This document shows positions 1,369 through 23,512 of a DNA stretch of 23,512 bases, piece after piece. Origin of the DNA: a virus. Taxonomy: Duplodnaviria > Heunggongvirae > Uroviricota > Caudoviricetes. Positions within the stretch are counted from its first letter, which is position 1. The number at the start of each line of letters is the position of its first letter. Location: IMG/VR virus record IMGVR_UViG_2531839455_000001; one strand, 5' to 3'. The notes beneath the pieces were generated by a model. That model was given only the letters and a program-made list of their open reading frames with translations. It made no database searches and was not told the DNA's origin. The position numbers and the translations under genes were made by a program.

Positions 1369-1444
1369 GCCGATATAGCTCAGTTGGTAGAGCAGCGCAT
1401 TCGTAATGCGAAGGTCGTAGGTTCGACTCCTATTATCGGCACCA
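1369..1444 (+). tRNA. thrW: tRNA-Thr (anticodon CGU), 76 nt with encoded CCA
   Basis: GCCGATATAGCTCAGTTGGTAGAGCAGCGCATTCGTAATGCGAAGGTCGTAGGTTCGACTCCTATTATCGGCACCA: 7-bp acceptor stem, D loop AGTTGGTA, anticodon loop TTCGTAA (CGT), T loop TTCGACT. Confidence 0.9.
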
Positions 1445-1454
1445 TTAAAATCAA
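1399..1454. repeat. attL: 56-bp core shared with attR (thrW 3' 46 nt plus 10 nt downstream)
   Basis: ATTCGTAATGCGAAGGTCGTAGGTTCGACTCCTATTATCGGCACCATTAAAATCAA is repeated exactly at 19624-19679; integrase gene ends 5 bp away. Confidence 0.85.
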
Positions 1455-4043: not shown

Positions 4044-4170
4044 TTTGTTCTCCACGTATATGCGCTGCACCGCGCTGAATTCTGGTAAAAAGAATCCCTC
4101 ACCATCCGGCGATTATTGAGTAAATTACGTTTCCATAAATGCCCCCGCAGGGGCATTTGCAGTAATGAAA

Positions 4171-4995: not shown

Positions 4996-5060
4996 AATAA
5001 GTCCTCACTATATAAAGATATTCAGTGATGAGATAAATAATCAGTTAATTAAAAACGATA

Positions 5061-6408: not shown

Positions 6409-6447
6409 ATTGCTACTGTTGTGGATATCCAGATTGTTAAAGAGCGA

Positions 6448-6470
6448 AGCGTCCTATAGGGCGCTTTTTT
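6448..6470 (+). terminator. Rho-independent terminator after moron gene
   Basis: AGCGTCC-TATA-GGGCGCT stem-loop (one G-U pair) followed by TTTTT. Confidence 0.5.
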
Positions 6471-6550
6471 GTTGCTAACGAATCATCCTGGACTTCATAT
6501 GCTCCAGGGGGCTACTTCGTGGGCGTCCTGCCTGTTTGTTGTTTCTCTTG

Positions 6551-6585
6551 GGTACATTATGTATCTCAAAGGTACATTGTCAAGT
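6551..6585 (-). promoter_or_regulatory. Putative leftward early promoter (PL-like) with operator half-sites (OL)
   Basis: On minus strand: -35 TTGACA, 17-bp spacer, -10 CATAAT; two TGTACC half-sites overlap the promoter, same core as the OR palindromes. Confidence 0.45.
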
Positions 6586-6610
6586 ATAAAAAAACCTGCC
6601 GAAGCAGGTT
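6586..6610 (-). terminator. Rho-independent terminator downstream of repressor gene
   Basis: Minus strand AACCTGC-TTCG-GCAGGTT followed by T7. Confidence 0.6.
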
Positions 6611-6622
6611 CATAAACATTGA

Positions 6623-7297
6623 TTAGGCTTTGATTTTGTATCTTCTTGGTTTTCCTGAGAAAATCACAGTTCCAATTATAGAGCAATTACCGTTGATCTT
6701 AATGTAAGGCTCAGGCCAGTTTGGGTTTAACGCTTTGAGATAACGCTGTGTCCCATCTTCTATCAACCTTTTGAAGGTGGTTTCACCTGTATCGTGCATC
6801 AATGCAATAACGTCGTCACCGTGGCAGGCAGGTACTTCAGGATCGACAAAAATCATGTCTCCCGGGCGGTACTCATCAATCATTGAATCACCTATCACCC
6901 GCAAGATATAAGTCATTTCCCCACAGGGTACAGGGCAGGGATACGTTTCTGCTGTGCTCAAATCAACCTCAGAATATCCAACTTCTTTCCATGCTCCGGC
7001 CTGTACCCATGATATGACAGGGACTAATGTGATTTGTTTATTAGTGATTGAAACATCAGGTTTTTTTGTGATGTTCGTTGTCTGGTGTTCTTGATCGAGC
7101 CATCCGACAGGCAGGTCGAAACATTTTTCGATGTGTCGTGCCATGCTGTCACCGATATTTTTAGTAGCACCATCTCCCATAAACCTGCTGGTCTGGGTTG
7201 GCTCGCGATCAATCATAGTGGCAAAGGAAGAATTCCCGCCAACACCATCTCTCAGTTTTCTGGCGTTAGACCGCCGGATGTCATGGATTGTTTTCAT
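6623..7297 (-). CDS. cI: Phage CI/C2-type repressor (N-terminal HTH, C-terminal S24 LexA-like peptidase), 224 aa
   Basis: ORF MKTIHDIRRSNARKLRDG...; C-terminal region ...LRVIGDSMIDEYRPGDMIFVDP... typical of S24 autocleaving repressors; divergent from a cro-like gene with palindromic operators between. Confidence 0.85.
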   Translation of the reverse strand: MKTIHDIRRSNARKLRDGVGGNSSFATMIDREPTQTSRFMGDGATKNIGDSMARHIEKCFDLPVGWLDQEHQTTNITKKPDVSITNKQITLVPVISWVQAGAWKEVGYSEVDLSTAETYPCPVPCGEMTYILRVIGDSMIDEYRPGDMIFVDPEVPACHGDDVIALMHDTGETTFKRLIEDGTQRYLKALNPNWPEPYIKINGNCSIIGTVIFSGKPRRYKIKA

Positions 7298-7312
7298 AAC
7301 GAAATTAAAACC

Positions 7313-7382
7313 CTTGTACCGTTAAGGTACAAGTATCTTGAAGGTTCATTTCAATCATGTAATATGTACGCCGGAGGTACAT
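7313..7382. promoter_or_regulatory. OR-like operator/promoter region between cI and cro
   Basis: Perfect palindromes CTTGTACC-GTTAA-GGTACAAG (7313-7333) and ATGTAC-GCCGGAG-GTACAT (7364-7382); candidate PR -35 TTGAAG / -10 TAATAT between them. Confidence 0.6.
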
Positions 7383-7387
7383 ATTGT

Positions 7388-7588
7388 ATGAAAGCGTATT
7401 GGGACTCTTTAACCAAAGAACAGCAGGGCGAGTTGGCCGGAAAAGTTGGCTCAACACCTGGCTACTTACGGCTGGTTTTCAATGGCTATAAAAAAGCCAG
7501 TTTTGTGCTGGCTAAAAAACTTGAGCAATGCACGTCAGGTGCAATTACGAAATCTGACTTAAGACCGGATATCTATCCGAAAGATTAG
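7388..7588 (+). CDS. cro: Cro-like HTH regulator (66 aa)
   Basis: MKAYWDSLTKEQQGELAGKVGSTPGYLRLVFNGYKK...; GGAGG upstream (spacer ~10 nt); divergent from cI. ORF track start at 7085 lies antisense inside cI, so rejected. Confidence 0.7.
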   Translation: MKAYWDSLTKEQQGELAGKVGSTPGYLRLVFNGYKKASFVLAKKLEQCTSGAITKSDLRPDIYPKD

Positions 7589-7619
7589 CAGAACACTTTC
7601 AATTTTTAACCACAGAACG

Positions 7620-8189
7620 ATGAGGCTAATCGTGGGTAAGCATCACTGGAAAGTAGAAAAACAGCCTGAGTGGTACGTGAAAGCTGTCAGAAAAACTATC
7701 GCGGCGTTGCCGGGTGGTTACGCTGAAGCGGCTGACTGGCTCGATGTAACAGAAAACGCTTTATTCAACCGCCTTCGTGCAGATGGCGATCAGATTTTCC
7801 CGCTGGGATGGGCAATGGTTTTACAGCGTGCTGGTGGCACTCACTTCATTGCTGATGCTGTGGCGCAGTCTGCAAATGGCGTCTTTGTGTCTCTTCCTGA
7901 CGTCGAAGATGTGGACAACGCCGATATTAACCAGCGTCTGCTGGAAGTCATTGAACAGATCGGCAGTTATTCAAAACAGATTCGTTCAGCAATCGAAGAC
8001 GGTGTAGTGGAACCGCATGAGAAGACAGCAATTAACGACGAGCTGTATCTCTCAATTTCGAAGCTGCAGGAGCATGCAGCACTTGTCTACAAAATTTTTT
8101 GCATTTCAGAAAGTAATGACGCCCGCGAGTGTGCAGCTCCGGGCGTCGTGGCGTCGATTGCTTCTGGTTGTGGAGAAACTAACGCATGA
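7620..8189 (+). CDS. CII-position regulatory protein (YdaT-like?), 189 aa; start may be GTG 7632
   Basis: Protein-like ORF directly downstream of cro in the rightward early operon; family assignment from position and weak recall only. Confidence 0.45.
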
Positions 8190-8524
8190 ACAGTTTAACA
8201 ACACACTACCGTCGCTCGCAACTGATTGCGCTTCCTGTACCGGGTGGAAAAGCGAAGGTGGAATATTGCTATGCAGTGAATGTACCAGGTGACAGGGAAA
8301 TTGTAACCCACAGCTTTGCAGAGTGGGCTGTGGGTGATTTCAACCGGCAGAAGGAGACAGTCCTTTGCGACAAGTTAACCGCTGGTTCAAAGATCACTAC
8401 GGAGTGCCCGTCAGAGTCATTCGTTGGGAGCCGGAAACACAACGGGTTATCTACCTCCGCGAAGGTTATGAGCATGAATGCTTCAGTCCGCTCGAACAGT
8501 TTCGTCGTAAATTCAGGGAAATAG
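8186..8524 (+). CDS. Hypothetical early protein; possibly frameshifted (see findings)
   Basis: ATG overlaps upstream stop (ATGA); N-terminal ~50 residues protein-like, C-terminal part low-complexity, while the alternative frame 8338-8544 looks more protein-like. Confidence 0.3.
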
Positions 8525-8533
8525 AGGTCGGTC

Positions 8534-9475
8534 ATGAGCACTAAATTAACCGGCTATGTATGGGATGGTTGCGCTGCATCAGGCATGAAGTTATCCAGCG
8601 TGGCAATTATGGCCCGCCTGGCTGATTTCAGTAATGACGAAGGTGTGTGCTGGCCATCAATTGAAACCATTGCCCGTCAGATTGGCGCGGGGATGAGTAC
8701 CGTCAGAACGGCTATCGCACGGCTGGAAGCAGAAGGCTGGTTAACGCGTAAGGCGCGTCGCCAGGGTAACCGCAATGCGTCGAATGTTTATCAGCTTAAC
8801 GTTGCGAAGCTTCAGGCAGCGGCATTTTCTCAACTGTCAGATTCTGACCCGTCAAAATCTGACGCATCAAAATCTGACCCGTCAAAATTTGATGCGTCGA
8901 AATCTGGCAAAAAAGCGGGTTTTCACCCGTCAGAATCTGGCGGGGATCCGTCAGTAAAATCAAAACATGATCCGTCAGATAAAAAACCTTCTCGTCCGGA
9001 CGCTTCGCAACCGGACACGCAGACGGCTGAACAGGATTTTTTAACTCGCCATCCTGATGCGGTTGTATTCAGCCCTAAAAAGCGCCAGTGGGGGACGCAG
9101 GATGATTTGACCTGCGCACAGTGGCTCTGGAAAAAAATCATCGCCCTGTACGAGCAGGCTGCCGAATGTGACGGCGAGGTGGTTCGTCCCAAAGAACCGA
9201 ACTGGACAGCCTGGGCAAACGAAATTCGCCTGATGTGTGTGCAGGATGGTCGTACTCACAAACAAATCTGCGAGATGTACAGCCGCGTCAGCCGCGATCC
9301 GTTCTGGTGCCGTAACGTGCTCAGCCCGTCGAAGCTGCGGGAAAAATGGGATGAGCTTTCCCTGCGCTTATCGCCGTCCGTAAGCACGTACACCGAAAAA
9401 CGCGAAGACCCGTACTTCAAATCCAGTTACGACAACGTGGACTACAGCCAGATCCCGGCAGGATTCAGGGGGTGA
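8534..9475 (+). CDS. Lambda O-like replication initiator (N-terminal winged-helix), 313 aa, iterons embedded
   Basis: N-terminus ...DEGVCWPSIETIARQIGAGMSTVRTAIARLEAEGWL...; central repeat-encoded segment DPSKSDASKSDPSKFDASKS coincides with DNA iterons. Confidence 0.7.
   Translation: MSTKLTGYVWDGCAASGMKLSSVAIMARLADFSNDEGVCWPSIETIARQIGAGMSTVRTAIARLEAEGWLTRKARRQGNRNASNVYQLNVAKLQAAAFSQLSDSDPSKSDASKSDPSKFDASKSGKKAGFHPSESGGDPSVKSKHDPSDKKPSRPDASQPDTQTAEQDFLTRHPDAVVFSPKKRQWGTQDDLTCAQWLWKKIIALYEQAAECDGEVVRPKEPNWTAWANEIRLMCVQDGRTHKQICEMYSRVSRDPFWCRNVLSPSKLREKWDELSLRLSPSVSTYTEKREDPYFKSSYDNVDYSQIPAGFRG
8828..8990. repeat. Iteron array (putative prophage ori) inside replication gene
   Basis: Tandem ~15-bp units TCTGACCCGTCAAAA / TCTGACGCATCAAAA / TCTGACCCGTCAAAA / TTTGATGCGTCGAAA and degenerate copies (..CCGTCAGAATCT.., ..TCCGTCAGTAAAATC.., ..TCCGTCAGATAAAAAA). 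Confidence 0.6.
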
Positions 9476-9490
9476 TCATGAGTCTGTTAA

Positions 9491-10009
9491 ATGACGTTCA
9501 GAAATTCATTGAAGCCCAAAGATATTGTTGGTGTATGGACCGTATGTCACGGGCATATTGCACCGCCAGATATTCCGGCAGGCTTCGTGGCTGTTTTCAA
9601 CAGTGATGAGGCATCGTGGCATCTCGTTGAAGACCATCGAGGTAAAACGGTTTATGACGTGGCATCAGGGGACGCGTTATTTATTTCTGAACTCGGTCCG
9701 TTACCGGAAAATGTTACTTGGTTGTCACCGGAAGGGGAATATCAGAAGTGGAACGGCACAGCCTGGGTGAAGGATACGGAAGCAGAAAAACTGTTCCGGA
9801 TCCGGGAGGCGGAAGAAACAAAAAACAGCCTGATGCAGGTAGCCAGTGAGCATATTGCGCCGCTTCAGGATGCTGCAGATCTGGAAATCGCAACGGAGGA
9901 AGAAACCTCGTTGCTTGAAGCCTGGAAGAAGTATCGGGTGTTGCTGAATCGTGTTGATACATCAACTGCACCTGATATTGAGTGGCCTGCAATCCCTGTT
10001 ATGGAATAA
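9491..10009 (+). pseudogene. Tail fibre assembly (Tfa) gene remnant: conserved C-terminal portion only, fused to an unrelated short N-terminus
   Basis: ...[35 protein letters not shown]...[16 protein letters not shown]...[22 protein letters not shown] matches the recalled Tfa C-terminal domain; canonical Tfa N-terminus absent; no tail fibre gene upstream. Confidence 0.65.
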
Positions 10010-10562
10010 TCGTTCCTGTTGTAGCCACAGTCACGTCATATACAAGAACTTGCCGGCCTAAGAAGAGTTCGTGCTGATTTTGAATATAAAATCAGCATTA
10101 CAACGCCCGAAATACCCAGGCTAAAAAATTTCTTAGGACATTATCAGCTGGCGATACATAGATGGACTGGATACTAGACCGATAGAGGCGCTGTATGCGT
10201 CATCTTGTCGTGATGCTGGCGAAGTTGTGCGAACGAAGTATTAACTTTTGCAGCCTAGCTGATTCAATTGATGCAGCCACACTAACGGGGCGCTTTTTTC
10301 CATGTAATGGTTGTAGAAGATGTTACTGAGAGGGATTAAATGAAACAGCAAATACGTCATATGTTAGAGCATGTTGTGGTTGACTGTTGAACACACCTAT
10401 CACAAATGTGCTTCTTTAGAAAGAGAATTTACATAAGCAAATTGCAACATGTTTTTTTTCTGAGTAAATAGTATGATTAACAATGCTGACTACCATTTTC
10501 TTACATGGCGAACCTAATTAAGAATTAAACGCGAGTAGATTACCCGCTTTAGAGGAGGATTT

Positions 10563-11504
10563 ATGTCCGGTTACTGTTTTTACTCTCAGGATGCATTAGC
10601 CTTAGCCCAGGCAGCTGGTGTTGATGTAATAATAAACGAGTATGCTGAGAAGAATAAAAAACAGACATATGTTCTTTGTCGTCCCCTGTCAAATGAGGAT
10701 GTAAAGTATGATTATGACCAAGCGATAGCGGTATTTTCGGCTGGTATAAAACCTTTTTTTATGAATTTAGGAGATGACGTCGAACTCTTTGAAGAGTATC
10801 AAGAGGATTTTCTAGAGGATGTATCATATTTAGCAGAGAAATTTAAGTATCGTAGTAAAATTGGAAGAAAAAAGACATGGCAAGATTTATTTGAAGTACT
10901 TTCTGTTGGTGATGCCGATTTCAGTAAGCTGGAGGTTGAAACTAAAGAAAGTAGAATAATTGATTTGCTAATCTCGCTTATTGTGGGAAGTATTAACGAT
11001 ACTTCAAGAATTAATCTTGAAGCAAGTAATTTATTAGATACAATAAAATCAAAGATTATTTTATTTGATACTGATCAAACAAAATTCGTTTTCCAAAGTG
11101 GAATTGGAAAAAAGACTGTAATACAAGGCTTGGCTGGTTCGGGGAAAACAGAACTCCTTTTACATAAATTAAAAGAGGTTTATTTAAGGAACCCTGATGC
11201 TAAAATTGCATTTACTTGTTTTAATAAAATACTTGCATCTACAATGAGAACTAGGATACCAGAGTTTTTTGATTTTATGCGAGTGGAAAAGCAAATTGAA
11301 TGGGGTACGAAACTTTTTTGTTTTAACTCTTGGGGTTTGACTAAAGATCCCTTTTCTGGGATGTATAGATATATATGTCATTATTACGAAATTCCATTCG
11401 GTGGTTTTGGCAACGGAGATTTCGATGCTCTTTGCAAAAAAGCCATTTTGGATATAAAAAAAGTGGGCGGTCTGATGAAAAAGCTCTCGATTATGTGTTT
11501 ATAG
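10563..11504 (+). CDS. UvrD-like SF1 helicase, N-terminal segment (unknown ~190-aa N-domain + Walker A); reading frame ends shortly after an A7 run
   Basis: AGAGGAGG RBS before ATG; Walker A GLAGSGKTELLLHK (nt ~11127-11168); AT-rich; frame continues sensibly in the -1 frame after 11456-11462. Confidence 0.7.
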   Translation: MSGYCFYSQDALALAQAAGVDVIINEYAEKNKKQTYVLCRPLSNEDVKYDYDQAIAVFSAGIKPFFMNLGDDVELFEEYQEDFLEDVSYLAEKFKYRSKIGRKKTWQDLFEVLSVGDADFSKLEVETKESRIIDLLISLIVGSINDTSRINLEASNLLDTIKSKIILFDTDQTKFVFQSGIGKKTVIQGLAGSGKTELLLHKLKEVYLRNPDAKIAFTCFNKILASTMRTRIPEFFDFMRVEKQIEWGTKLFCFNSWGLTKDPFSGMYRYICHYYEIPFGGFGNGDFDALCKKAILDIKKVGGLMKKLSIMCL

Positions 11505-12550
11505 ATGAAAGCCAAGATTTTCCACAAAGCTTCATTGAACTATGTGAAATGGTTACATCTAAAAAACTATATGTAGCGGGCGATGTATTTCAAAATATAT
11601 TTATGCCGATTAATGATAACGTGAATCGAGCAGATATAGTTCTTAAAAAATGTTATCGCACAGATCCAAAGAACTTAATGTTTTCTCATGCACTAGGAAT
11701 GGGACTTTATGAGAAACCGGTGCTTCGGTGGTTGAAAGAGACTGAGTGGGATTCTTGTGGATATAAATATAATAAGGTTGGGGATAGAGTACATTTATCT
11801 AGGGATCCGTTAAGACGCTTTGAAGATATTCCAAAAAATCATAAAAGTACGGCTATTCATTTACTAAAAGAAGTGGATAATGGTCCTGATAAAATAGTTG
11901 AAATTATTAAGGATATTCAGGCCCGCAATCCTACTTTAGAGCAAGGAGATATAGCAGTCATTTTCCTTGATGCTAGTGGTTATATTTATGATTATATTCA
12001 ATCACTAAAATCAAAAGTCAAGTTGCAGCTTGGTTGGGACTCTAATATTTCACATGAGACAAAATCAAAACAAGATGGGAAGCTTTTTATTTCCAATATA
12101 AACAATGCAAAAGGGCTTGAGTTCCCATTTGTTATTTGTTTTGCTATGAAATTAGTAAAGAGAGCAAACTTTCGAAATGCTCTGTATACTATGATGGCTA
12201 GATCTTTTTTAGAAAGCCATTTAGTTTTAAATAATGATAATGAAAATCCGGCAATGCCTACTATTATTGAAGGTTTAGATTTTCTCAATAAAAATGATTA
12301 TATGGATGTAAGACTTCCGTCGGATGAGGAAATAAACAATCAAAAGGATTATATTATTTTGGATGAGTCTACCTCTATTAATCAAATGGTTAGAAAATAT
12401 TGTGAAGATAAAAAATCCACACCTCGCTTAATAGCAAAAGTTACTCACACTGTAGAAACTATAATAGCAGGTCTTGATGATGATGATGTCGATGATGACT
12501 ATATAAATAGATTGATTGAAATAGAATATATAAGGAATAAAAAGTTATGA
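11375..12550 (+). CDS. UvrD-like SF1 helicase, C-terminal segment (helicase motifs II-VI); meaningful coding begins near 11462
   Basis: Motifs DYVFIDESQDF (II), YVAGDVFQNIF (III), CYRT (IV), AKGLEFPFVICF (VI); first ~29 codons of the ORF are an out-of-frame overlap with the N-terminal segment. Confidence 0.7.
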   Translation: MSLLRNSIRWFWQRRFRCSLQKSHFGYKKSGRSDEKALDYVFIDESQDFPQSFIELCEMVTSKKLYVAGDVFQNIFMPINDNVNRADIVLKKCYRTDPKNLMFSHALGMGLYEKPVLRWLKETEWDSCGYKYNKVGDRVHLSRDPLRRFEDIPKNHKSTAIHLLKEVDNGPDKIVEIIKDIQARNPTLEQGDIAVIFLDASGYIYDYIQSLKSKVKLQLGWDSNISHETKSKQDGKLFISNINNAKGLEFPFVICFAMKLVKRANFRNALYTMMARSFLESHLVLNNDNENPAMPTIIEGLDFLNKNDYMDVRLPSDEEINNQKDYIILDESTSINQMVRKYCEDKKSTPRLIAKVTHTVETIIAGLDDDDVDDDYINRLIEIEYIRNKKL

Positions 12551-13185
12551 GTTTTTATTTCTTTAATAATGTACCTACAGTGTACCTTGAAAAGTTCTGC
12601 GCTGTAAGAGATGCATTTTCCAATCTGGAAAATCTTCTTATTGCTGCGGAAATTATAAATACATGTCATGACTGTTGGAATAAAGAAACAAATGATTTCG
12701 ATTTGCTAATAAGTACTGGTACTCATAAGCGAATTCTGGTGAGGAAACCGGATGGTTTTTTTTCTATGAATTTACCATTTCAAGTAATTGAGTATGAAAG
12801 CAATATCTGTTTTAACTATGATGCCTATGGGCTTCCTGTTAATGCAGAGTTTATTTCTCGATGCAGGAATGTAATAAATACTTGCAGTAATGGCGCTTTT
12901 TCTCAGGAGGCAATTGCTCTTGAATTGTGTGATAACTTTGATCGAGATATTCAAAGTGCTATAAATTATGCTGATGCAATTTGTTCATTGTTGTTAGTTG
13001 ATCATGGGTATTTTAGGTTTGATGATGATCCTAAAAATGCGAAGGATAAAGTGCATCCAAGATATCACTTTGATTTTTTCTTCAATAATTCTACTAATGT
13101 AAAGATAGGCTGTAATACTCGTTTGGATGAATCATTTTTTTTAGAACTATTTGATGTAAATAAAGACCGCCCCTATCTGGCTTGA
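12547..13185 (+). CDS. Hypothetical 212-aa protein, translationally coupled partner of the helicase
   Basis: ATG overlaps helicase stop (ATGA); AT-rich, Cys/His/Asp-rich (LVDHGYFRFDDDPKNAKDKVHPRYHFDF); strong hairpin directly after stop. Confidence 0.65.
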   Translation: MSFYFFNNVPTVYLEKFCAVRDAFSNLENLLIAAEIINTCHDCWNKETNDFDLLISTGTHKRILVRKPDGFFSMNLPFQVIEYESNICFNYDAYGLPVNAEFISRCRNVINTCSNGAFSQEAIALELCDNFDRDIQSAINYADAICSLLLVDHGYFRFDDDPKNAKDKVHPRYHFDFFFNNSTNVKIGCNTRLDESFFLELFDVNKDRPYLA

Positions 13186-13187
13186 AT

Positions 13188-13213
13188 TATAAGCGCCCAT
13201 CAGGGCGCTTATA
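13188..13213. terminator. Stable hairpin (11-bp stem) immediately 3' of the cassette; no U-tract
   Basis: TATAAGCGCCC-ATCA-GGGCGCTTATA. Confidence 0.3.
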
Positions 13214-13635
13214 GGGTGAGATGAGTATTATAAAGAGTCTGTTTTGGGTAGTGTTTTTATAAATATTTACATATATCATAACTTTTGCCAATGTAATATT
13301 TGAATTCTTCTATTACGTATTTAAGTATCGTTTGGCTTTTTTTCTTTGGCTATCCTGCACTCAATAAGCATAAAAATCCATTTACATTGTTTTTGCATAT
13401 GACATGTTTTTAATTGTTCGAATGGATCGTGTTAGTACTATTTTATCTGGTAAAAAGCAGATGTAGATATTAGGAAGTTTTTTTTGAATGATAATGGAGC
13501 AATTAAGATTTTTTATTCTAACCATTCCCTAGAAATACTCTGCCTAAAAAATAGACATAATATGGCAACCATAATAGGCCGGTTTTTGGTGGCATGAAAG
13601 GATTTTTAATCCTTGTGCCTGACACCTTATCATGA

Positions 13636-14504
13636 TTATGAAAGACCGTAGTATTTATTTAGCGCGGTGGTAGCGGCTTGAGTTGCTACAGCTATTCCTA
13701 TACCCAAAATACCATGGGCTGCTTTACTTGCAATATTTGCCAGCCATTTACTAACAGATTGACCGTATTCATCACGTCTGTTAGCTATCGGGCCATCTTC
13801 ACCAATAGCAATTTCTAAATCGTTTACATCAGATTTAGGAAACCCCTGAGCTAAGAGATATTCTTTTAATGATTCAATGTTGTTTTTTACGATATGGTTA
13901 TTCACAGAAAATGAGTTTTCATTTCCGAAGTTTATAACAGTATTGTCTCCAAAAATTGAGTTATGAAACAATGAAGACGTGTCGATATTTTTAAGTTTTT
14001 CTGTCATGTTTTTCTCATCTGATATTTCAGAAACTTGATCAGAAAGTTCAAGTATAAAATCAAGTAGCCGTGATCTGACCTGAGTTAAGATGGAAGTGAA
14101 GTTATGTAGCGCGATCTCTTTATAACAGCATGTTAACTCATAGCCTCTATCGATACCTTTGCAATATTTAACTAATGCATAATCTAAAGGAATTGGCTGC
14201 TGCAGGGTATGGCTATCACCAGCATTGGTTACTAGGTCTTCGATTTGACTGATTGAAAGTCTAACTTTACTGGTTGTAGCATCTTCATAGTCATCTTCAC
14301 TGAGATAGCCAATCGGTAAAGGAAAAGCTCTATATAGGCGAATGCCATTGTTCAGATCTGCAAGAATTCTTGTGCCAACAATTCTATAATCGGGAAGGGA
14401 AACTGAATCAGAATAACCGTTTATCTCATGATTTACCCATGCAGCAAGCTCCTTTTTCCCGATAGAGAAAAGAAGGATCTTTGTTTTTATGAGAGCATCT
14501 GTTG
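13636..14504 (-). pseudogene. Abi-like gene (AbiTii-type N-terminal domain suspected), 3' portion; gene split by IS66-family insertion
   Basis: Minus-strand frame is open from the IS boundary (14504) to the stop at 13636 (...KELAAWVNHEINGYSDS...MTEKLKNIDTSS...AAHGILGIGIAVATQAATTALNKYYGLS); the ORF track shows only the distal 123 aa because there is no in-frame ATG upstream. Confidence 0.6.
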
Positions 14505-14534
14505 GTAAGCGGCTCGTCAGAACCGTATTGATAT

Positions 14535-16106
14535 TTACTGAGAGCTCAGATCAACTTTCCAGGGCAACAGATCGCGTACCCGGTTTGCCGGCCAGTCCTG
14601 GATATGTTCAATGACGTAGCGCAGCCACTTTTCTGGCTCCACATTGTTCAGACGGCATGTGCCGATCAGCGAGTACAACACCGCCGCATGTTCACCACCG
14701 CTGTCGGAACCCGCGAACATCCACTTTTTCCGGCCTACGGCCACTCCCCGTAAGGCGTTCTCTGCGATGTTGTTGTCGATTTCCACCCAGCCATTACTGC
14801 AGTACACGTTCAGTGCATCCCACTGTTTCAGCAGGTATGCGAACGCTTTTGCCGTATCTGAGTGACGCGACAGTGTTTTCATCTGTTGCTGTATCCAGTC
14901 ATACAGTGACTGCATCAGTGGCGCGGCTCTGGTTTTTCTTGCCGCCAGACGCTGTTCTGCTGAACAGCCCCGGACCTCTGCCTCGATGGCATACAGTTCA
15001 CCGATACGCTGCAGGGCTTCCGTGGTGATGTCGGTGGGCGCTCTTGCATGCACATCGTGGATTTTTCTCCGGGCATGAGCCATACACGCGGCTTCCGTTA
15101 TTCTGCCGGATTCGTATAACGCCCGGTAACCACCGTAAGCATCGGCCTGAAGCACACCGCTGTAACCGGCCAGGTGATTTTGTGGATGGATACCTTTCCG
15201 GTCCGGACTGTACGCGAACCAGACCGCCGGGGGCATCTGTGAACCGGCGTTACGGTCATCACGGACGTAGACCCACAGCCGGGCTGTCCGGGTTTTACCG
15301 CTGCCCGGCTCCTGGACCGGGACGGGGATATCATCAGCATGGACTTTACCGGGCATCAGCACATACTGGCGCAGGACGTCATACAGCGGCTCCAGTAGTT
15401 CAGCAACGGCACCTGTCCAGCGCCCCAGTGTGGCACGGCTCAGCTCCACACCCTGACGGCGGTATATCTCTGACTGGCGGTATAACGGCAGATGGTCTGC
15501 ATATTTTCCGGTGACGACATGGGCCAGGAGCCCCGCTCCGGCATAACTGCGTGCAATGGGTTTTGAAGGTACTGGTGCCTGCACGATATGGTCGCACCGA
15601 CAACAGGCCAGTTTCGGACGTTGTGTTTCGATAACCTTAAAGGCGCTGCTGATAAGCTCCAGTTGCTCTGACACATCACATCCCAGAGAACTGAGTTCAC
15701 CACCACAGGCAGGACAGCATTCCTCTTCCGGCCGGATAACCCGGGTTTCACGGGGAAGTGAGGCCGGTAACGGTTTACGGGCTGAAGACTGGCGCAGGGC
15801 GGATGGCAGTACCGGGTCATATTGCTCACCCAGCGTTTCCGCCATTTCTTCCTGAAGTGCGCTGATTCGCTCCTGTGCTTCCTGTATCTGCCGTTCGGTT
15901 TTTGCACGAAGTTTTTCTGAGCTTTTACCGAACTGCATACGTTGCAGTTTCGCAACCAGCGCCTTCAGCCGGTTGATTTCGGAAGCATAAGCCGCCACCC
16001 GCTGTGAGAGCAGGCGGTTGTATTCAGCCATCTGGCGTATGGTGTCCTGTTGCGTCTGCAACAGTGCCCGCAGGCGGGCGTTCTCATGAGCAAGTGAGGT
16101 GTCCAT
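14535..16106 (-). CDS. tnpC: IS66-family transposase TnpC (523 aa)
   Basis: [20 protein letters not shown]... with leucine-zipper-like N-terminus, CxxC...CxxC zinc-finger and DDE-type core, matching recalled IS66 Orf3. Confidence 0.9.
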
Positions 16107-16125
16107 ATCCTCACTTTACAACGGG

Positions 16126-16473
16126 TTATATGCGGATTCCAGCGCGTTCCGTTCGTTTCGGGTGCTTCCAGTTGATACCTTCAAGAAGCATGGATAACTG
16201 AGCCGGAGTAAGGTGCACCTTGCCGTCACGGGTGACTGGCCAGACGAAGCGGCCCCGCTCCAGGCGTTTGGTGAAGAGGCACAGTCCGTCACTGTCAGCC
16301 CACAACACTTTTATCTGGTCACCCCGGCGTCCGCGGAAGATGAACAGGTGTCCGGAGAACGGGTCATCCTTCAGGACGTTCTGAACTTTTGATGCCAGGC
16401 CGTTAAAGCCATTTCGCATATCGGTGATACCTGCAACCAGCCAGATACGCGAACCTGCAGGGAGAGATATCAT
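16126..16473 (-). CDS. tnpB: IS66-family TnpB (Orf2), 115 aa
   Basis: MISLPAGSRIWLVAGITDMRNGFNGLASKVQ...GHLFIFRGRRGDQIKVLWAD..., the recalled conserved IS66 Orf2 signature. Confidence 0.85.
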   Translation of the reverse strand: MISLPAGSRIWLVAGITDMRNGFNGLASKVQNVLKDDPFSGHLFIFRGRRGDQIKVLWADSDGLCLFTKRLERGRFVWPVTRDGKVHLTPAQLSMLLEGINWKHPKRTERAGIRI

Positions 16474-16679
16474 CAGTGGCTGCTCCCTTTTATTTCGCGG
16501 ATAAGTGTCTGTAATAACGCCGGCGTCAGTTTACCTTTAAGCCTGAGAGTTCCGGCCGGCAGAACCAGCTCACAACACAGACTGTCGGACGGTGTATTTA
16601 TCTGCTCTGGTTCCTGTGCGGGGGCCGGGATTTTATTATCCGGCTCCGGCGTTAACGTCACGGGAAGCAGTGCCGGCAT
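16473..16679 (-). CDS. IS66-internal small ORF (68 aa), stop overlaps tnpB start; possibly part of the accessory protein
   Basis: ATGA overlap with tnpB; Pro-rich; no in-frame ATG upstream; uncertain. Confidence 0.3.
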   Translation of the reverse strand: MPALLPVTLTPEPDNKIPAPAQEPEQINTPSDSLCCELVLPAGTLRLKGKLTPALLQTLIREIKGSSH

Positions 16680-16809
16680 ATTTTTTCCGGAAGGCAGCAG
16701 GCCACCTTTCCGGTATTGATGGTCGCCAGTTGAAGAGCAGGTTATCGTTGATTCCGTTTTCCCGGGGCGATCTGCGCCACACAGGCTCCGGGCTGCAGTG
16801 ACTGCTCCA

Positions 16810-17154
16810 CTAAGGCGATTTTAAACTCATAAGGGAAGTTGGGCCGCCGGGGGACGTTTTTTTACCACGGGGGCGTTCGGATATAACGGTGCTTTCAGGA
16901 CGTACGACTGGTACCGTGGAAAATTGTCCGTAAAGGCAGGCATCAAGTTCCTGCTCCGACATGCCTGCGGGCAAAGGCCACGAAAGGCCAGCTCTCCGAA
17001 AGCGCACGAACATACTACAAACTGTTGATTTTGGTACACCCAGGCGACGCCCGGCCACAACCCGGGGTAAATGTTCTTCAAAGTGAAGACGTAAAGCTTC
17101 AGTGATCCAGGTCCGGTGTTTCATACGATAGTGTCCATTAAAAATGATGGACAT
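16810..17154 (-). CDS. tnpA: IS66-family accessory protein TnpA (Orf1), HTH-containing, ~104-114 aa
   Basis: First ORF inside the left IR, same strand as tnpB/tnpC; HTH-like ...LGVPKSTVCSMFVRFRRAGLSWPLP...; alternative start MKHRTWITE at 17124. Confidence 0.5.
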   Translation of the reverse strand: MSIIFNGHYRMKHRTWITEALRLHFEEHLPRVVAGRRLGVPKSTVCSMFVRFRRAGLSWPLPAGMSEQELDACLYGQFSTVPVVRPESTVISERPRGKKTSPGGPTSLMSLKSP

Positions 17155-17207
17155 TATTTTTGTAGAGCCGGAGGAAACAGACCAGACGGTTTAAATGAGC
17201 CGGTTAC

Positions 17208-17267
17208 ATCTGTTGTGTCTTCATCACCAGTACTTAGTATCTGAATGATTTCTTGCAGTTGGTTCAT
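17208..17267 (-). pseudogene. Abi-like gene, 5' portion (first 18-20 codons, MNQLQEIIQILSTGDEDT...), separated from its 3' portion by the IS66 element
   Basis: Removing the IS and one TSD copy joins this segment in frame with 14504-13636 to give a continuous 306-codon ORF. Confidence 0.55.
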
Positions 17268-17281
17268 ATGTCTTATCCCAT

Positions 17282-17305
17282 AAAAAAGCCCGCATAAGCG
17301 GGCTT
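17282..17305 (-). terminator. Rho-independent terminator (minus strand) just upstream of the Abi-like start
   Basis: Minus strand AAGCCCGC-TTAT-GCGGGCTT followed by T6. Confidence 0.5.
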
Positions 17306-17434
17306 CTATGTCACTAAAGAGCCGCGGCTCCTTTGCGTATCCTTTTTTGTCTCCTCACCGTCTGGTCGGTGTCCTGCTGAGACTGCTAACTTCCTGTTTT
17401 TGTTGGTGTTGTCCTTACACTGTCCAATCATGAT

Positions 17435-17462
17435 TGGTGGAGCTGGCGGGAGTTGAACCCGC
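17435..17462 (-). other. ssrA (tmRNA) 3'-end fragment, att-site-like footprint
   Basis: Minus strand reads GCGGGTTCAACTCCCGCCAGCTCCACCA, identical to the recalled 3' terminus of E. coli tmRNA; no matching 5' half, so not a complete RNA gene. Confidence 0.6.
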
Positions 17463-17849: not shown

Positions 17850-18956
17850 ATGATTACTAGTGGGTATTTAATAGGACAGATAATTGACGACCTATCAAAT
17901 ATAGCACAGCAAGCAAAAGTCAGAAACAAACTTGGACATACTGATTTATCTGTGTTTGCTGAGAATTTTTTCAAGGATATACTAAACGAGACACTGGAAC
18001 TATCCTTAATAAACACTAACATAACAAGAGCTAACGAGCCTGGTATAGATCTTGCTGATATGGCAAAAAAAACAGCATTCCAGGTCACAACTGACAAAAC
18101 AAGTAAAAAAGTAATAAACACTCTTGAAAAAATAACATCTGAACAAAGAAATAATTACCGCCACTTCAATATTTTGATAATAGGTGATAAACAAGATAAG
18201 TATGAGGCTGTAACGAAAGCTTTAGCTAACAGAAGTGATACCGAAGAATCTTATGATGAAAGTGAAGAAGAACAAAAAAGTAAGATTCATAAAGATATAG
18301 TATTTGATCCAAACGAAAACATTATGGATTTGACTGACTTATTCCGTAAAATAATTGGGTTAGATTTGGTGAATATCCAAAAAATCCATAGCATCATCCA
18401 AAAAGAAGGCGCGAAAGTCAAAATTGAGCTTCAGGTCCCTGATGAGAATGGTGAGTTTCAAACGAATGGTTATGATCTTTGGGAATCACGTCCAAAAAAA
18501 CAACTTAGCGATGGGGTCATTTTCAGTAACTGGGAAGCTGCACAAGGCGGAGCAGTAGCCACACAAGAAGCAATTGATAAAACTAAGAAAGACATTGAGG
18601 AATTAGCGAGTCGCCTTTATTCCTTGCCACGAATAACACGCGAGTTTCTAGCAATGCTTTATGAGCTGGCTAACTATAAACGTGAACGATATGATGAGCA
18701 TCCAAGTATTTTCTATAGTTTTGTTAAAAAAACTTACCCCAATGCAGACGAAGAGATAAAATTACTGCTATCTCATGAGTTAATCGATATGGACTCTGAA
18801 CAAAAAGACACCGAAAGGTTTGTGGATACCGAGATTGGGTTATGTTTTTCTCTTCCATACAAGTCTTACCTAAATTTAGGGTTCTATAACTTTGTAAATG
18901 AAAATAAAATTTTATTTCGTGACGTAATTGGAAAGGTGGATTTTTCATGCTTCTAA
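17850..18956 (+). CDS. Hypothetical AT-rich 368-aa protein (orphan cargo gene next to attR; possible abortive-infection/defence protein)
   Basis: Clean ORF with GAGGT RBS 9 nt upstream; Lys/Glu/Asn-rich; no recognisable phage structural or housekeeping motifs by eye. Confidence 0.7.
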   Translation: MITSGYLIGQIIDDLSNIAQQAKVRNKLGHTDLSVFAENFFKDILNETLELSLINTNITRANEPGIDLADMAKKTAFQVTTDKTSKKVINTLEKITSEQRNNYRHFNILIIGDKQDKYEAVTKALANRSDTEESYDESEEEQKSKIHKDIVFDPNENIMDLTDLFRKIIGLDLVNIQKIHSIIQKEGAKVKIELQVPDENGEFQTNGYDLWESRPKKQLSDGVIFSNWEAAQGGAVATQEAIDKTKKDIEELASRLYSLPRITREFLAMLYELANYKRERYDEHPSIFYSFVKKTYPNADEEIKLLLSHELIDMDSEQKDTERFVDTEIGLCFSLPYKSYLNLGFYNFVNENKILFRDVIGKVDFSCF

Positions 18957-19623: not shown

Positions 19624-19679
19624 ATTCGTAATGCGAAGGTCGTAGGTTCGACTCCTATTATCGGCACCATTAAAATCAA
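19624..19679. repeat. attR: exact 56-bp copy of thrW 3' end + 10 nt (partial tRNA-Thr, not a functional gene)
   Basis: Identical to 1399-1454; lacks the tRNA 5' half. Confidence 0.85.
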
Positions 19680-19950
19680 ATTGTTACGTAAGATCTTATC
19701 ATTCTCCCACCAAAAAATTATCTTAATGTAACAGCTGGTGTAAGTAAATTCTATCAACGAAGATCAATCTTATCTACTGACCAAAAAGGCCTGATAGGGC
19801 TTCGCTCACTATACATCCTTGGCTGCAGGTTTAGTTGTACACCACTCCTAAATTTAATGTGTTGGCAATGTGTTCAATAAAGCTCGAACAAATTAGCTCA
19901 TTATGATCGGTTAATACTTCAACTTCTGGTTGCATGATTGTTTGTCCGTA

Positions 19951-19985
19951 AAAAGATAACGCGCCTGCCGGGTAGTAGCAGGCGC
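19951..19985 (-). terminator. Putative terminator downstream of the toxin-antitoxin operon
   Basis: Minus strand GCGCCTGC-(9-nt loop)-GCAGGCGC followed by a T-rich tract (GTTATCTTTTT). Confidence 0.4.
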
Positions 19986-20050
19986 ATTACGCAATAGGTA
20001 AACAAGGGAGGAAGTTCAGAAATGTAAATCGGGAAGGTTGTACGCAATGT

Positions 20051-20730
<680 letters not shown>

Positions 20731-20748
20731 TACAGTTCTCCACTATTG

Positions 20749-20970
20749 TCAGTTCAGGGTGATGCTCATCAGGCAGGTATAGGGCCCATTGCGGTCCTGG
20801 CGGCGTTCGGCGTATACCGCGAGGACTCCGGCGATATCCGGAACGTCCCTGCCGGTGTAATGACAGACGCTACCGTGCCACTGGTATTTGCCGGTGCAGT
20901 AGCGAAAGATTCGGGACTCAGGATGCTGGCGGTATATCGTCATTGCCCTGCGTTTACTGATAATTTTCAT
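20749..20970 (-). CDS. ykfH: DUF987 protein (YkfH/YeeT-like), 73 aa
   Basis: MKIISKRRAMTIYRQHPESRIFRYCTGKYQWHG...; start at internal Met of the 77-aa ORF. Confidence 0.75.
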   Translation of the reverse strand: MKIISKRRAMTIYRQHPESRIFRYCTGKYQWHGSVCHYTGRDVPDIAGVLAVYAERRQDRNGPYTCLMSITLN

Positions 20971-20978
20971 GTAATACC

Positions 20979-21455
20979 TCAAAGCAGACCGTGTTCTGCG
21001 AACGAATAGATTTGCCTGCCACCGACAATCAGATGGTCAGGGACACGGATATCCACCAGCTGAAGCACCTGAACCAGTCGCTGCGTGAGGGTTTTGTCGG
21101 CCTGGCTAGGTGTCGTCTCGCCGGAAGGATGGTTATGCGCGAGTATCACCGCCGCCGCGTTGAAGTGCAGAGCACGTTTGACCACCTCCCGGGGATGCAC
21201 CTCGGTGCGGTTAATCGTGCCGGTGAAGAGCGTTTCATGGGCAATCAACTGATTCTGGTTGTCCAGATACAACACCCGGAACTCTTCCCGCTCAAGCGCG
21301 GCCATATGCAGTCGCAGCCATTCACGTACGGCGTGGGTAGAGGTGAAGGCTACGCCGGGCTCATGCAGGTGGCGGTCCAGAGCCCTGAGCGCCCGCTGAA
21401 TGAGACGCCGGTCCTGTGGCGTCATCTCGCCGGGTAAAAAGGAAAGCTGTTTCAT
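20979..21455 (-). CDS. ykfG: RadC-like JAB-domain protein (YkfG/YeeS-like), 158 aa
   Basis: JAMM-like motif ...HFNAAAVILAHNHPSGETTPSQAD... Confidence 0.85.
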   Translation of the reverse strand: MKQLSFLPGEMTPQDRRLIQRALRALDRHLHEPGVAFTSTHAVREWLRLHMAALEREEFRVLYLDNQNQLIAHETLFTGTINRTEVHPREVVKRALHFNAAAVILAHNHPSGETTPSQADKTLTQRLVQVLQLVDIRVPDHLIVGGRQIYSFAEHGLL

Positions 21456-21470
21456 CTGTTGCTCCTTCGG

Positions 21471-21929
21471 TCAGTCGATAATACGCAGAATGGCGTGAGC
21501 CTCTGGATGTTGCATGGCATACTCCCGCAGGCGGTAATAGTGTGCGGTCATCGCGTCACATTCTGTACGGCAGGCATGGTGGCTATACGCAATCAGGCAG
21601 ACAGCAATACCTGCTGCTTCTGCACTCATTTGGGCATCGTTACCGTTCAGGCAGTTAAACAGACGCCATGTCTCATCGTTGTCAGGCTCGGGGGACATAA
21701 ATGCGCCGCCATTGCTGAGGGTGTAGAACGACCAGATACCACCGCTGTAGCCCTCACAGAAGCGGTCCATCCAGGCGAAGATATGCGGCTCCAGGAGTAG
21801 CCACTGCGGGATAGCGCCAAAGTACTGTGGCCAGAAATCGATACGCTGTTCATCGGGGACCGGCGTGACGGTCAGTTCAAATTCGGGTTGGTTAGCGGGT
21901 GCGAGGTCGTGCTGCGTCTGTGTTGTCAT
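21471..21929 (-). CDS. yafX: Antirestriction protein (YafX/YfjX/KlcA-like), 152 aa
   Basis: Start at MTTQTQHDLAPANQPEFELTV... (ATG 21929, GGAGAC RBS); ORF track start at 22142 is an upstream extension. Confidence 0.8.
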   Translation of the reverse strand: MTTQTQHDLAPANQPEFELTVTPVPDEQRIDFWPQYFGAIPQWLLLEPHIFAWMDRFCEGYSGGIWSFYTLSNGGAFMSPEPDNDETWRLFNCLNGNDAQMSAEAAGIAVCLIAYSHHACRTECDAMTAHYYRLREYAMQHPEAHAILRIID

Positions 21930-22026
21930 GGGTATGTCTCCGTCAATAAAAACGCCAGCGGCGATGGCTGGCGTATGGGGATATAAAGTGTGTTCGGGGA
22001 GGTGAATGCGGGTAAATGCTTCGCGA

Positions 22027-22266
22027 TCAGCGGGTGGCCGTGTCTGTACGGATGCCTGAGGTGCGGATATAGCGGTTAAGACCTTCACCGGCATCCGGCT
22101 CAAAGTTCCATGCCCGCCAGACCATCCGGCCTTCAGTATCACGAACCACCAGACGGAAGTGACTGCCCTGGTCGTCTTCGAGTGTGATATTGCTGTACGT
22201 GGTAGTGACCGCTTGCGCTTGTCTCCGGGTGAAAGGCCCCGGTGGCAGCAACACGGATTGGGTCAT
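22027..22266 (-). CDS. ykfF: DUF905 protein (YkfF-like), 79 aa
   Basis: [43 protein letters not shown]...; start at internal Met of the 150-aa ORF. Confidence 0.75.
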
Positions 22267-22342
22267 TTTCGGGCTCCTGATAAAAGAAAACCCCGGCAGC
22301 CTGCTAGCTGTCGGGGTGGATTTGCTGGGGAAGATACTACTA

Positions 22343-22810
22343 TCAGTCGTTGCTGCAGTCTCCGAGAGTGGACAGAACTTTCTCAGTGTTCTTCCGGTCC
22401 GCAGTGAAGGTCCCTGCTTTGTGGTCATTGACGTAGACGTCGAACTGCCCGGCCTCAGAGATATTGCTGATGAAGTCAAACCAGGCGTTATCGCCGTTAC
22501 GCCAGCCCAGGCTGGACGGAATAATGTACTGCTGGTGATCCATCACTACGGTGATAGTAGTGTCGTCATCGTGCGAACTGACCATCTTGTCATCGGCAAG
22601 GGTAAGAAAGACTGAATGCTGATAGAAACCATTCTGGTCCGGGTTCCCTGTGCAGTTGATGGTAAACGTCTTTCCGCTGGCTTCGGTCACGCTGTATTCC
22701 GTATTGCCCTGACCGTAACCCTGCTGCCAGAACCCCGGGATAGCAGAGGCATTAAAGCTCGCGAGCAGTACACCCGCCAGCATAAACCGACTTAGTGAAA
22801 GTATTGTCAT
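22343..22810 (-). CDS. ykfB: Secreted/periplasmic small protein (YkfB-like), 155 aa
   Basis: N-terminal signal-peptide-like segment [23 protein letters not shown]; position in CP4-6-like block. Confidence 0.65.
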
Positions 22811-22832
22811 TCTTGTCTCCTTTGTCGTTGTT

Positions 22833-23276
22833 TTATTCCTGATTGTCAGGGTTCGAGGGTATCAGTAGCTGCCCCATCAGTTTGCCGTCATGGGCGTACT
22901 CAAAGTATTTTTCTTTGGTATACGGGTCCGTCACCTCCTGGTATTCCAGTTTGATGTTATCGGCAATACACAGCGCATTCATCAGCGGCTGGATGGTTTT
23001 TTCCTGCATATCCACGAGGTAGTAGTAACTACCGCCCTCGCAGCCATCGGGCGACTCACGGGTACGTAAGACCTGCAGGGTGAGACCTGATGAAAAGCCA
23101 ACCTGTGACCATTCTTCGCTGACATCATCCTGCCGACTGACCACATCGCTGAAGCGCGGAGGCGTGAGGTCCTTAAATTTACTGATAGCTTTCAGGTCAT
23201 CACTCCTGTCATCGCAGGCGCTCAGAAACAGAGTGGTGGCAACCATCGCCAGCAGAGGTAGTGTTTTACATTTCAT
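22833..23276 (-). CDS. yafY: Lipoprotein (YafY-like), 147 aa
   Basis: Signal peptide plus lipobox (LFLSAC); start overlaps upstream stop (TAATG). Confidence 0.7.
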   Translation of the reverse strand: MKCKTLPLLAMVATTLFLSACDDRSDDLKAISKFKDLTPPRFSDVVSRQDDVSEEWSQVGFSSGLTLQVLRTRESPDGCEGGSYYYLVDMQEKTIQPLMNALCIADNIKLEYQEVTDPYTKEKYFEYAHDGKLMGQLLIPSNPDNQE

Positions 23277-23512
23277 TATTTTTTCCCTGAAATCAGACGT
23301 ACCACTTTGGCAAAGACATAAATGCCGACGAAAATACCCACCGGCACGCCGACGAACGGTGTCAGCGCGACACTGGCAGCACCGGCTGCGCCACCTCCCG
23401 TCAGCAGTGCGGCAACAGTGGCAAGGGTCAGGGCCGCGAGACTGTCGGACACCCCGGTTTTGTTCAGAATGATGACGATGACAACAATGGCGATAATGGC
23501 AATAACGGGCAT
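23276..23512 (-). CDS. Small hydrophobic membrane protein, 78 aa, runs to window edge (start may lie outside)
   Basis: Highly hydrophobic/Gly-Ala-rich ORF coupled to the yafY-like gene; Met at 23512 may be coincidental. Confidence 0.45.
   Translation of the reverse strand: MPVIAIIAIVVIVIILNKTGVSDSLAALTLATVAALLTGGGAAGAASVALTPFVGVPVGIFVGIYVFAKVVRLISGKK

Follow-up and report, generated by a model that had tools for sequence, protein, structure and literature searches.

One of the closest described relatives of the gene considered here belongs to the lactococcal AbiT system, in which two proteins are required, namely AbiTi, a predicted endoribonuclease, and AbiTii, which has no recognisable catalytic fold (PMC13064643). 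AbiT hampers phage DNA replication and capsid protein production, and mutations by which phages escape it were found in the major capsid protein and in early genes (PMC13064643). Elsewhere the AbiTii domain, described as a globular alpha+beta fold in which a single glutamate is highly conserved, is fused to HEPN RNases and has been proposed to be a phage-interacting or regulatory part (PMC3710099). Here we analyzed an AbiTii-family gene that is interrupted by an insertion sequence (IS), ISCro1 of the IS66 family, at positions 13636 to 17267 of the IMG/VR virus record IMGVR_UViG_2531839455_000001 (Caudoviricetes). The whole stretch of 23,512 nt is called the window below. The overall best explanation, to which we give a probability of about 0.8, is that one recent ISCro1 insertion knocked out an AbiTii-domain gene carried as prophage cargo, the product of which would be a defence factor.

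When the protein was compared with the lactococcal AbiT system, its N-terminal 190 residues matched the AbiTii profile nearly end to end, and both genes lie on mobile elements. However, the gene in the window has no AbiTi-like gene and no conserved neighbour, and its product carries an extra C-terminal module of ~115 residues. An N-terminal AbiTii domain and a C-terminal output module in one polypeptide are also found in the AbiTii-HEPN fusions c2405 and Ymh (Anantharaman et al. 2013, PMC3710099). The HEPN domain of these proteins has a conserved His (c2405) or an R-x4-6-H motif, whereas the window protein has a small four-helix domain after a disordered FGDN motif. Judged from its sequence, the protein is outside both the two-component AbiT system and the AbiTii-HEPN fusions and works, at most, like them.

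Insertion of ISCro1 into an AbiTii-family gene

When the IS and one copy of the flanking 8-bp repeat were excised, the two minus-strand segments joined into a single open frame, 921 nt long, with 306 codons and a stop. The restored gene was identical at 921/921 nt to an uninterrupted allele of E. coli 25-07338 (12237-13157 of the locus analysed), which has one ATCTGTTG copy, and the identical 921-nt gene was also found uninterrupted in five further complete genomes. The product of the 25-07338 allele, WP_033803116.1, is annotated as 'AbiTii domain-containing protein'. The original prediction, made from the letters of the DNA alone, had already reconstructed a 306-codon frame; the same protein was obtained on excision, confirming that reconstruction. 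It had also suggested that uninterrupted alleles be sought in related genomes, and that flanks brought together only at this locus would speak against it. In a survey set of 5426 complete E. coli genomes, 31 have the gene intact, one allele being identical at every nucleotide, and the empty-site allele is continuous, so that the flanks are not joined only here.

The inserted element was identified as ISCro1, a known active element. Over its full length it was 99.8-99.9% identical to annotated IS66-like ISCro1 copies on E. coli chromosomes and plasmids, with which it shares the order tnpA-tnpB-DDE transposase, the inverted repeats opening with GTAA and the 8-bp duplication. The ends are GTAAGCGGCTCG and the reverse complement of GAGCCGGTTAC, with agreement at 17 of the first 22 positions; the termini start with GTAAGCGGCTC and, reverse-complemented, with GTAACCGGCTC. 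In addition to the domain listed in Table 1, the transposase matched Pfam zf-IS66, LZ_Tnp_IS66 and IS66_C. The chance of a random 8-bp identity at two fixed positions is ~1.5e-5. The inverted repeats, the Pfam matches, the identity to ISCro1 and the single repeat copy in the empty site indicate that the earlier assignment to IS66 with an 8-bp target duplication was correct, and the coordinates proposed for the IS ends, the repeats and the flanking segments all hold. ISCro1 was first named in Citrobacter rodentium, and ISCro1-related sequence is present in 3017 of the 5426 E. coli genomes.

The copy in the window differs from ISCro1 in its length, 2703 bp vs 2699 bp, and in four private 1-base insertions that break tnpA. 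Compared with the 2699-bp copy at the same locus in E. coli strain 504239 (isolated from human stool in India; its chromosome is 99.96% identical to the window), these insertions are at 16723, 16764, 16849 and 16875 and span 153 bp; in the strain 504239 copy tnpA is unbroken, and its 225-aa product has an HTH_Tnp_1 domain. None of the 4650 ISCro1 places in complete genomes shared the four insertions (best identity 98.2%). A fifth indel, A8 to A7 at 11456, frameshifts the STM2767-family helicase gene in the window only. The tnpA insertions may be private mutations, and thus real decay, or sequencing errors of the source assembly. The element had been called complete, which is true of its ends, tnpB and the DDE transposase but not of tnpA, which is frameshifted by the four insertions.

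As it stands in the window, the AbiTii-family gene is knocked out, to judge from its reading frame: it is reduced to a stub of 20 codons and a promoterless, start-less remainder. Since no in-frame ATG, GTG or TTG occurs 3' of the IS before Met184, no product containing the putative sensor is possible. The 123-aa C-terminal open reading frame (ORF) from Met184 to the end (13636-14007, minus strand) is the only part that could still be translated in principle. In strain 504239 the 3' fragment is annotated as a partial pseudogene and a 123-aa 'hypothetical protein'. The PHROGs family phrog_16090 (123 positions, unknown function) corresponds to residues 184-306 of the AbiTii-family protein; because it was built solely on the truncated Met184 ORF, the family is an annotation artefact.

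The identical IS/gene junction was found in five of the 5426 complete genomes (504239, 67-1, TW11681, S1-NGR-02-A and LR883000), and in all five the flanks were 100% identical to the intact allele. Identical flanks together with a junction confined to five genomes indicate one recent event in one lineage. On the chromosome of each of the five genomes ISCro1 occupies 7-9 places, with further copies on plasmids, and ISCro1 copies in the carrier lineage are also located in or beside traD and a portal gene.

Table 1. Features of the window, in order of position.
Feature	Position	Strand	Remarks
attL of degraded prophage	1399..1454	+	overlaps 3' end of tRNA-Thr(CGT) (tRNA 1369-1444)
STM2767-family UvrD-like helicase and STM2766-family 212-aa partner	10563..13185	+	convergent with AbiTii-family gene
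AbiTii-family gene, 3' fragment (codon 18 to stop)	13636..14504	-	first in-frame ATG/GTG/TTG is Met184 at 14007
Conserved C-terminal module (residues 193-306)	13639..13980	-	FGDN-motif linker, then four-helix domain (223-306)
AbiTii-domain coding part (residues 4-192), most of it	13981..14504	-	initial part at 17216-17258
Target-site duplication, left copy, 8 bp	14497..14504		ATCTGTTG
ISCro1 (IS66 family) insertion sequence, 2703 bp	14505..17207	-	genes co-directional with interrupted gene
Terminal inverted repeat IRR, 3' of transposase gene	14505..14526		GTAAGCGGCTCGTCAGAACCGT; 17/22 positions match other end
IS66 DDE transposase (tnpC), 523 aa, intact	14535..16106	-	Pfam DDE_Tnp_IS66 1e-102
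IS66 TnpB (Orf2), 115 aa, intact	16126..16473	-	between tnpA and transposase; Pfam TnpB_IS66 4.7e-40
IS66 tnpA, broken	16473..17154	-	four 1-base insertions; 114-aa and 68-aa ORFs
Terminal inverted repeat IRL, 5' of tnpA	17186..17207		reverse complement GTAACCGGCTCATTTAAACCGT
Target-site duplication, right copy, 8 bp	17208..17215		ATCTGTTG; gene nt 53-60, codons 18-20
AbiTii-family gene, 5' fragment (start codon and codons 1-20)	17208..17267	-	
Terminator-like hairpin and U-tract	17280..17305	-	ends 12 nt before AbiTii-family ATG; -24.8 kcal/mol, z -4.0
28-nt fossil of the 3' end of ssrA (transfer-messenger RNA, tmRNA)	17435..17462	-	attachment-site core
SMEK-domain protein, predicted nuclease-type defence protein	17850..18956	+	divergent from AbiTii-family gene; Pfam SMEK_N 2.1e-33
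attR copy of tRNA-Thr attachment repeat	19626..19679	+	right border of prophage remnant

Any part of the gene was present in 39 genomes, with the 31 intact copies and the five ISCro1 insertions among them. Other breaks were an IS3 at nt 121/122 in W150 and an IS3 at nt 312/313 in D10. ZH177 and LR882493 are broken at nt 832/833 and keep only nt 833-921; in ZH177 an IS1 is located ~55 nt from the break, and LR882493 has the same endpoints, the association with IS1 having been shown for the ZH177 flank only. In 2 HS-C an IS1 is found in place of the whole gene. As a control, the helicase pair (2624 nt, 2.85-fold longer) showed one IS1 event in 31 genomes. Four of the five IS events fell in the shorter AbiTii-family gene (binomial p=0.018, with small numbers and uncorrected for phylogeny), which is suggestive of recurrent loss of this gene by IS. 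With a ratio of nonsynonymous to synonymous substitutions (dN/dS) of ~0.13 between E. coli alleles, the intact alleles are judged to evolve under purifying selection.

The first reading of the locus was that of an inactivated defence gene, as expected for a costly or toxic one. Inactivation by an IS was upheld; cost or toxicity would be one possible motive, and neutral decay is at least as likely. If the gene were costly or toxic to its own cell, IS inactivation or IS-mediated deletion would be favoured; the four IS-associated breaks beyond the ISCro1 insertion at nt 52/53-60 and the binomial comparison with the helicase pair fit this; that pair adjoins the gene and is equally AT-rich (33% vs 37% GC; window 46%, IS 55%). 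However, the events are few and the statistic ignores phylogeny. Furthermore, the 5' end of the gene faces the boundary of prophage and attachment site, where IS and islands accumulate, and several of the breaks may be deletions spreading from outside. Selected loss also has to be reconciled with 31 of 39 carriers keeping the gene intact at this low dN/dS, and with the many ISCro1 copies that the carrier lineage has in unrelated genes (traD, portal gene). On balance, selected loss appears somewhat unlikely. By default the ISCro1 insertion is read as a probable neutral side effect of ISCro1 multiplying in a lineage whose prophage is already decaying, which is at least as likely as selected loss.

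The AbiTii domain and the C-terminal module

The restored protein matched Pfam AbiTii (PF18864) over residues 4-192 with E=3.7e-34 and 119 bits (cut-off 27.6), the alignment spanning profile positions 3-184 of 189. It also matched the PADLOC AbiTii model (3.3e-33), and a search of NCBIfam with the full restored protein matched no model. The AbiTii-type N-terminus proposed beforehand was thus borne out by the profile search after excision. Relatives were full-length at 302-320 aa, with a few shorter partial entries, and occurred across Gammaproteobacteria; the matches listed reached 37% identity. Invariant residues included W40, E44, G47 and Y48, which make up the W.N.E.NGY motif pointed out in the original prediction, together with Q159-V160, R163-L164 and F167 of one helix. 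E44, located within a W-x3-E-x2-GY motif, was invariant in 36 and in 49 aligned relatives, and it would correspond to the published conserved glutamate of the AbiTii domain.

The structure was modelled on a cluster representative, P0001 (93% identical), standing in for the restored protein. In the full-length AlphaFold2 (AF2) model, which had a predicted local distance difference test score (pLDDT) of 76.8, the N-terminal domain was alpha+beta. Residues 1-177 formed mixed helices and strands, with pLDDT mostly 75-90 in the AbiTii part. A sequence-profile search of the PDB with the full protein found no relative.

No Pfam family, HEPN included, matched residues 184-306 at E<=10. When the C-terminal module was searched alone against 1.84 billion representatives, 708 proteins, counted as cluster representatives at 50% identity, were found at E<=1e-3. 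In the best 150 of these 708 matches the module was C-terminally placed, mostly in proteins of ~300 aa, and the AbiTii N-terminus was present in 9 of 10 sampled module-bearing proteins, indicating that the architecture is fixed and not shuffled. A structure model of the C-terminal part only gave a disordered stretch with a conserved F-G-D-N, followed by four helices (residues 223-306, pLDDT 90-96). The positions G203, L230, L247 and K278 were invariant in the module. No His or Arg was invariant in the module alignment, and the module is therefore not of the c2405 or Ymh HEPN type.

The C-terminus had been described as a hydrophobic, Gly/Ala-rich segment. A Gly/Ala-rich segment is indeed present, but over its best 19 residues the Kyte-Doolittle mean is 1.38, short of the values usual for a transmembrane helix; the values were ~0.7-1.1 in seven sampled relatives, several of which have a charged Glu inside the segment. 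A classical transmembrane helix is considered improbable, as hydropathy was below threshold across the sampled family. This sub-threshold hydropathy points to an amphipathic helical hairpin rather than to a clear membrane span, and a membrane-active hairpin of this amphipathic kind would be compatible with the sequence.

The ssrA attachment site and the prophage remnant

In E. coli 3985 and E. coli WP2-S18 the gene is directly 3' of smpB-ssrA in the same orientation, and the same placement was found in Klebsiella aerogenes (69% protein identity), Leclercia (56%) and Yersinia proxima (49%). These ssrA-adjacent copies then meet the tail ends of differing prophages, the baseplates being of lambda-like or Mu-like type. 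Beyond the prophage integrase of strain 3985, 26 nt of the ssrA 3' end are found again. With the ssrA core at both prophage ends, the gene is inside the prophage, as cargo next to the attachment site. In the window, homology to the ssrA-adjacent alleles ends exactly at the 28-nt ssrA fossil. Rfam gave no match at the fossil and spacer, and ARAGORN detected tRNA-Thr only and no tmRNA in the window.

The spacer from the CCA end of ssrA to the start codon is 167 nt long (17268-17434 in the window). It is near-identical among E. coli, Klebsiella and Leclercia and partly kept in Yersinia, and the coding sequence is far less conserved, with synonymous sites saturated between those genera. Where the gene adjoins ssrA in E. 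coli, Klebsiella, Leclercia and Yersinia, the terminator-like hairpin of the spacer (Table 1) is kept as well. The spacer would consist of an attachment-site arm and a phage-supplied replacement terminator for ssrA. In the window and in strain 25-07338 the gene persists away from ssrA.

Temperate phages carry accessory genes for defence ('morons') at the end with the attachment site, e.g. e14 and the b-region cargo of lambda. The AbiTii-family gene resembles such cargo in that it lies between tail-fibre genes and the attachment site, is AT-rich, has defence-like neighbours and is swapped among unrelated prophages. It differs in its unusually fixed position, first after ssrA and terminator in four genera, with the conserved 167-nt spacer. 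The gene is prophage accessory cargo that is exchanged among prophages.

The remnant that carries the interrupted gene in the window is integrated at tRNA-Thr(CGT), with an attachment repeat of 54-56 bp at its borders. Relative to the complete prophage of strain 3985, it retains the right-hand cargo arm as well as the integrase and the genes for early functions and immunity, and ~30 kb with regulatory, lysis, head and tail genes are absent, the junction being at ~9518-9555. The cargo arm consists, in order, of a partial tail-fibre assembly gene, the helicase pair (plus strand), the AbiTii-family gene (minus strand) and the SMEK gene (plus strand); in strain 25-07338 the same arm runs on into an IetAS system. 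Judged by this gene content, the AbiTii-family gene occupies a hot spot for cargo and defence genes of the kind typical of prophages.

The helicase pair is a two-gene cassette of unknown function that accompanies the AbiTii-family gene in lambda-like prophages, and it persists where the AbiTii-family gene is deleted or truncated. Its 212-aa partner protein corresponds to phrog_13184 and has no Pfam or PADLOC family. The SMEK protein matched the PADLOC Aga_REase model (short-Argonaute-associated REase) with 4e-28; the SMEK gene is unaccompanied by Argonaute and has the ssrA fossil on one side and the tRNA-Thr attachment repeat on the other.

Function of the AbiTii-family protein

We lean towards the reading that the protein is a single-gene, phage-triggered defence factor of the abortive-infection type. 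In such a system phage sensing or regulation would fall to the AbiTii domain, as proposed for the fusions to HEPN RNases, and the C-terminal four-helix module would provide the output in place of a fused HEPN domain or a separate AbiTi nuclease. As the module has no enzyme-like signature, the output would probably proceed by oligomerisation and membrane disturbance or by target binding; which of these mechanisms the modelled helices would serve can be named only tentatively, and any one choice is doubtful. No neighbour was conserved across contexts, the neighbours including DinI/DUF262, an 86-aa ORF, an S24 peptidase, SRAP, the helicase pair and integron-like cassettes. Defence-like neighbours were the helicase pair and SMEK, IetAS in strain 25-07338 and a TIR-domain gene in a Vibrio array.

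Several observations weigh against the protein being a defence factor of this kind. The prototype AbiT needs two proteins, of which AbiTi is the predicted nuclease, so that the word effector can be applied to a single-gene form by inference only. The original prediction of an abortive-infection effector accordingly stands for membership in AbiTii, and the effector role would be tentative, since the prototype AbiTii is one of two required proteins. PADLOC AbiTi gave no match on the protein or on the tested neighbours (helicase, 212-aa protein, SMEK), and in the literature searched only studies of AbiT in Lactococcus and the paper describing the domain came up, with no experiment showing phage protection or toxicity for the family of ~300 aa. 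The C-terminal module had no structural relative in the PDB and no sequence relative in profile searches, and the hydropathy of the C-terminal segment is lower than the usual transmembrane cut-off of 1.6. A tblastn search of 50,697 deposited phage genomes gave no homologue, and distant homologues in Amphritea and Psychrobacter lie among housekeeping-type genes. Finally, a promoter scan upstream of the gene detected no sigma-70-like site, in a scan that also missed the minus-strand terminator hairpin, which is supported by folding.

Some of these features could indicate that the gene is not a defence gene and serves the prophage, in lysogeny maintenance, in exclusion or in a role at the ssrA site, or an unrelated cell function, with AbiTii being a mere label. 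In four genera the gene strictly keeps its place right after ssrA, and it is much less well conserved than the 167-nt spacer. The C-terminal module shows no signature of an enzyme or a toxin, and some homologues are in non-mobile contexts. However, the attachment-site arm and the terminator account for the conservation of the spacer, and the gene persists away from ssrA in the window and in strain 25-07338. It also travels with unrelated prophage types, with lambda-like and Mu-like tails, in the position of accessory cargo, and the AbiTii domain is otherwise known only from an experimentally validated Abi system and in HEPN RNase fusions (PMC3710099, PMC13064643). A role other than defence is therefore regarded as unlikely. 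A more far-reaching proposal built on the defence reading, that of a widespread single-gene Abi system with a non-enzymatic helical output, which in enterobacterial ssrA prophages would be promoterless and expressed, once the phage has integrated, solely by read-through past the terminator of ssrA, itself very strongly expressed, and which would be so costly that it is repeatedly disrupted by IS, would be quite improbable as a whole.

The gene could also belong to a system of several genes, in which the adjacent SMEK protein or helicase pair would be its counterpart, in the way that AbiTii pairs with AbiTi. Such a partnership would follow the two-component prototype AbiT (PMC13064643), and the gene in the window lies between defence-like genes. 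In contrast, the neighbours differed in every context examined. SMEK is absent from the ssrA-adjacent copies, and the helicase pair is convergent with the gene and occurs also where the AbiTii-family gene is deleted or truncated. Since the tested neighbours also gave no PADLOC AbiTi match, a multi-gene system is very improbable. That the junction itself is an assembly artefact, a repeat-induced chimera, might be suspected from the five 1-base indels relative to the closest complete genome, four of them clustered in the IS and suggesting lower repeat quality, but both junctions are exact with the 8-bp duplication and the same junction occurs in five independently assembled complete genomes, which effectively refutes it.

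The preferred reading, one recent ISCro1 knock-out of a prophage-cargo AbiTii-domain gene, describes an ordinary textbook case of IS inactivation of an accessory prophage gene, and both ISCro1 and the 'AbiTii domain-containing protein' are already present in public annotation. In the literature searched, the family of ~300-aa proteins with AbiTii and a four-helix module, its fixed place behind ssrA and its repeated disruption by IS are undescribed, and no AbiTii-family protein has been characterised outside Lactococcus. The interrupted gene as a natural knock-out, together with an intact allele of identical sequence, provides a clean pair for testing an AbiTii-family protein in E. coli. The analysis also flags a large family (708 cluster representatives) with a conserved C-terminal module that has no Pfam model or structural relative, and the recurrent IS hits and the fixed ssrA position are cheap, testable starting points for asking what prophage-borne defence genes cost and how they are regulated.

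Some minor observations were made at this and a related locus. A homologue in Vibrio jasicida, 40% identical, is located in a long array of small same-strand genes with short spacers (locus 1-14915), including a TIR-domain CAP12-PCTIR gene, MazG, FRG, DUF6161 and acetyltransferases; by its gene arrangement the array looks like a superintegron cassette array. In the window, the candidate small RNA Rfam IS009 (RF02111) was found at full length (220.9 bits) at 9768-9966 on the plus strand, inside the partial tail-fibre assembly gene. The remnant is followed by a CP4-6-like island (19680-23512) which, as annotated in strain 504239, encodes a YkfI/YafW type IV toxin-antitoxin, an antirestriction protein, a JAB-domain protein and a YfjR-like WYL-domain regulator.

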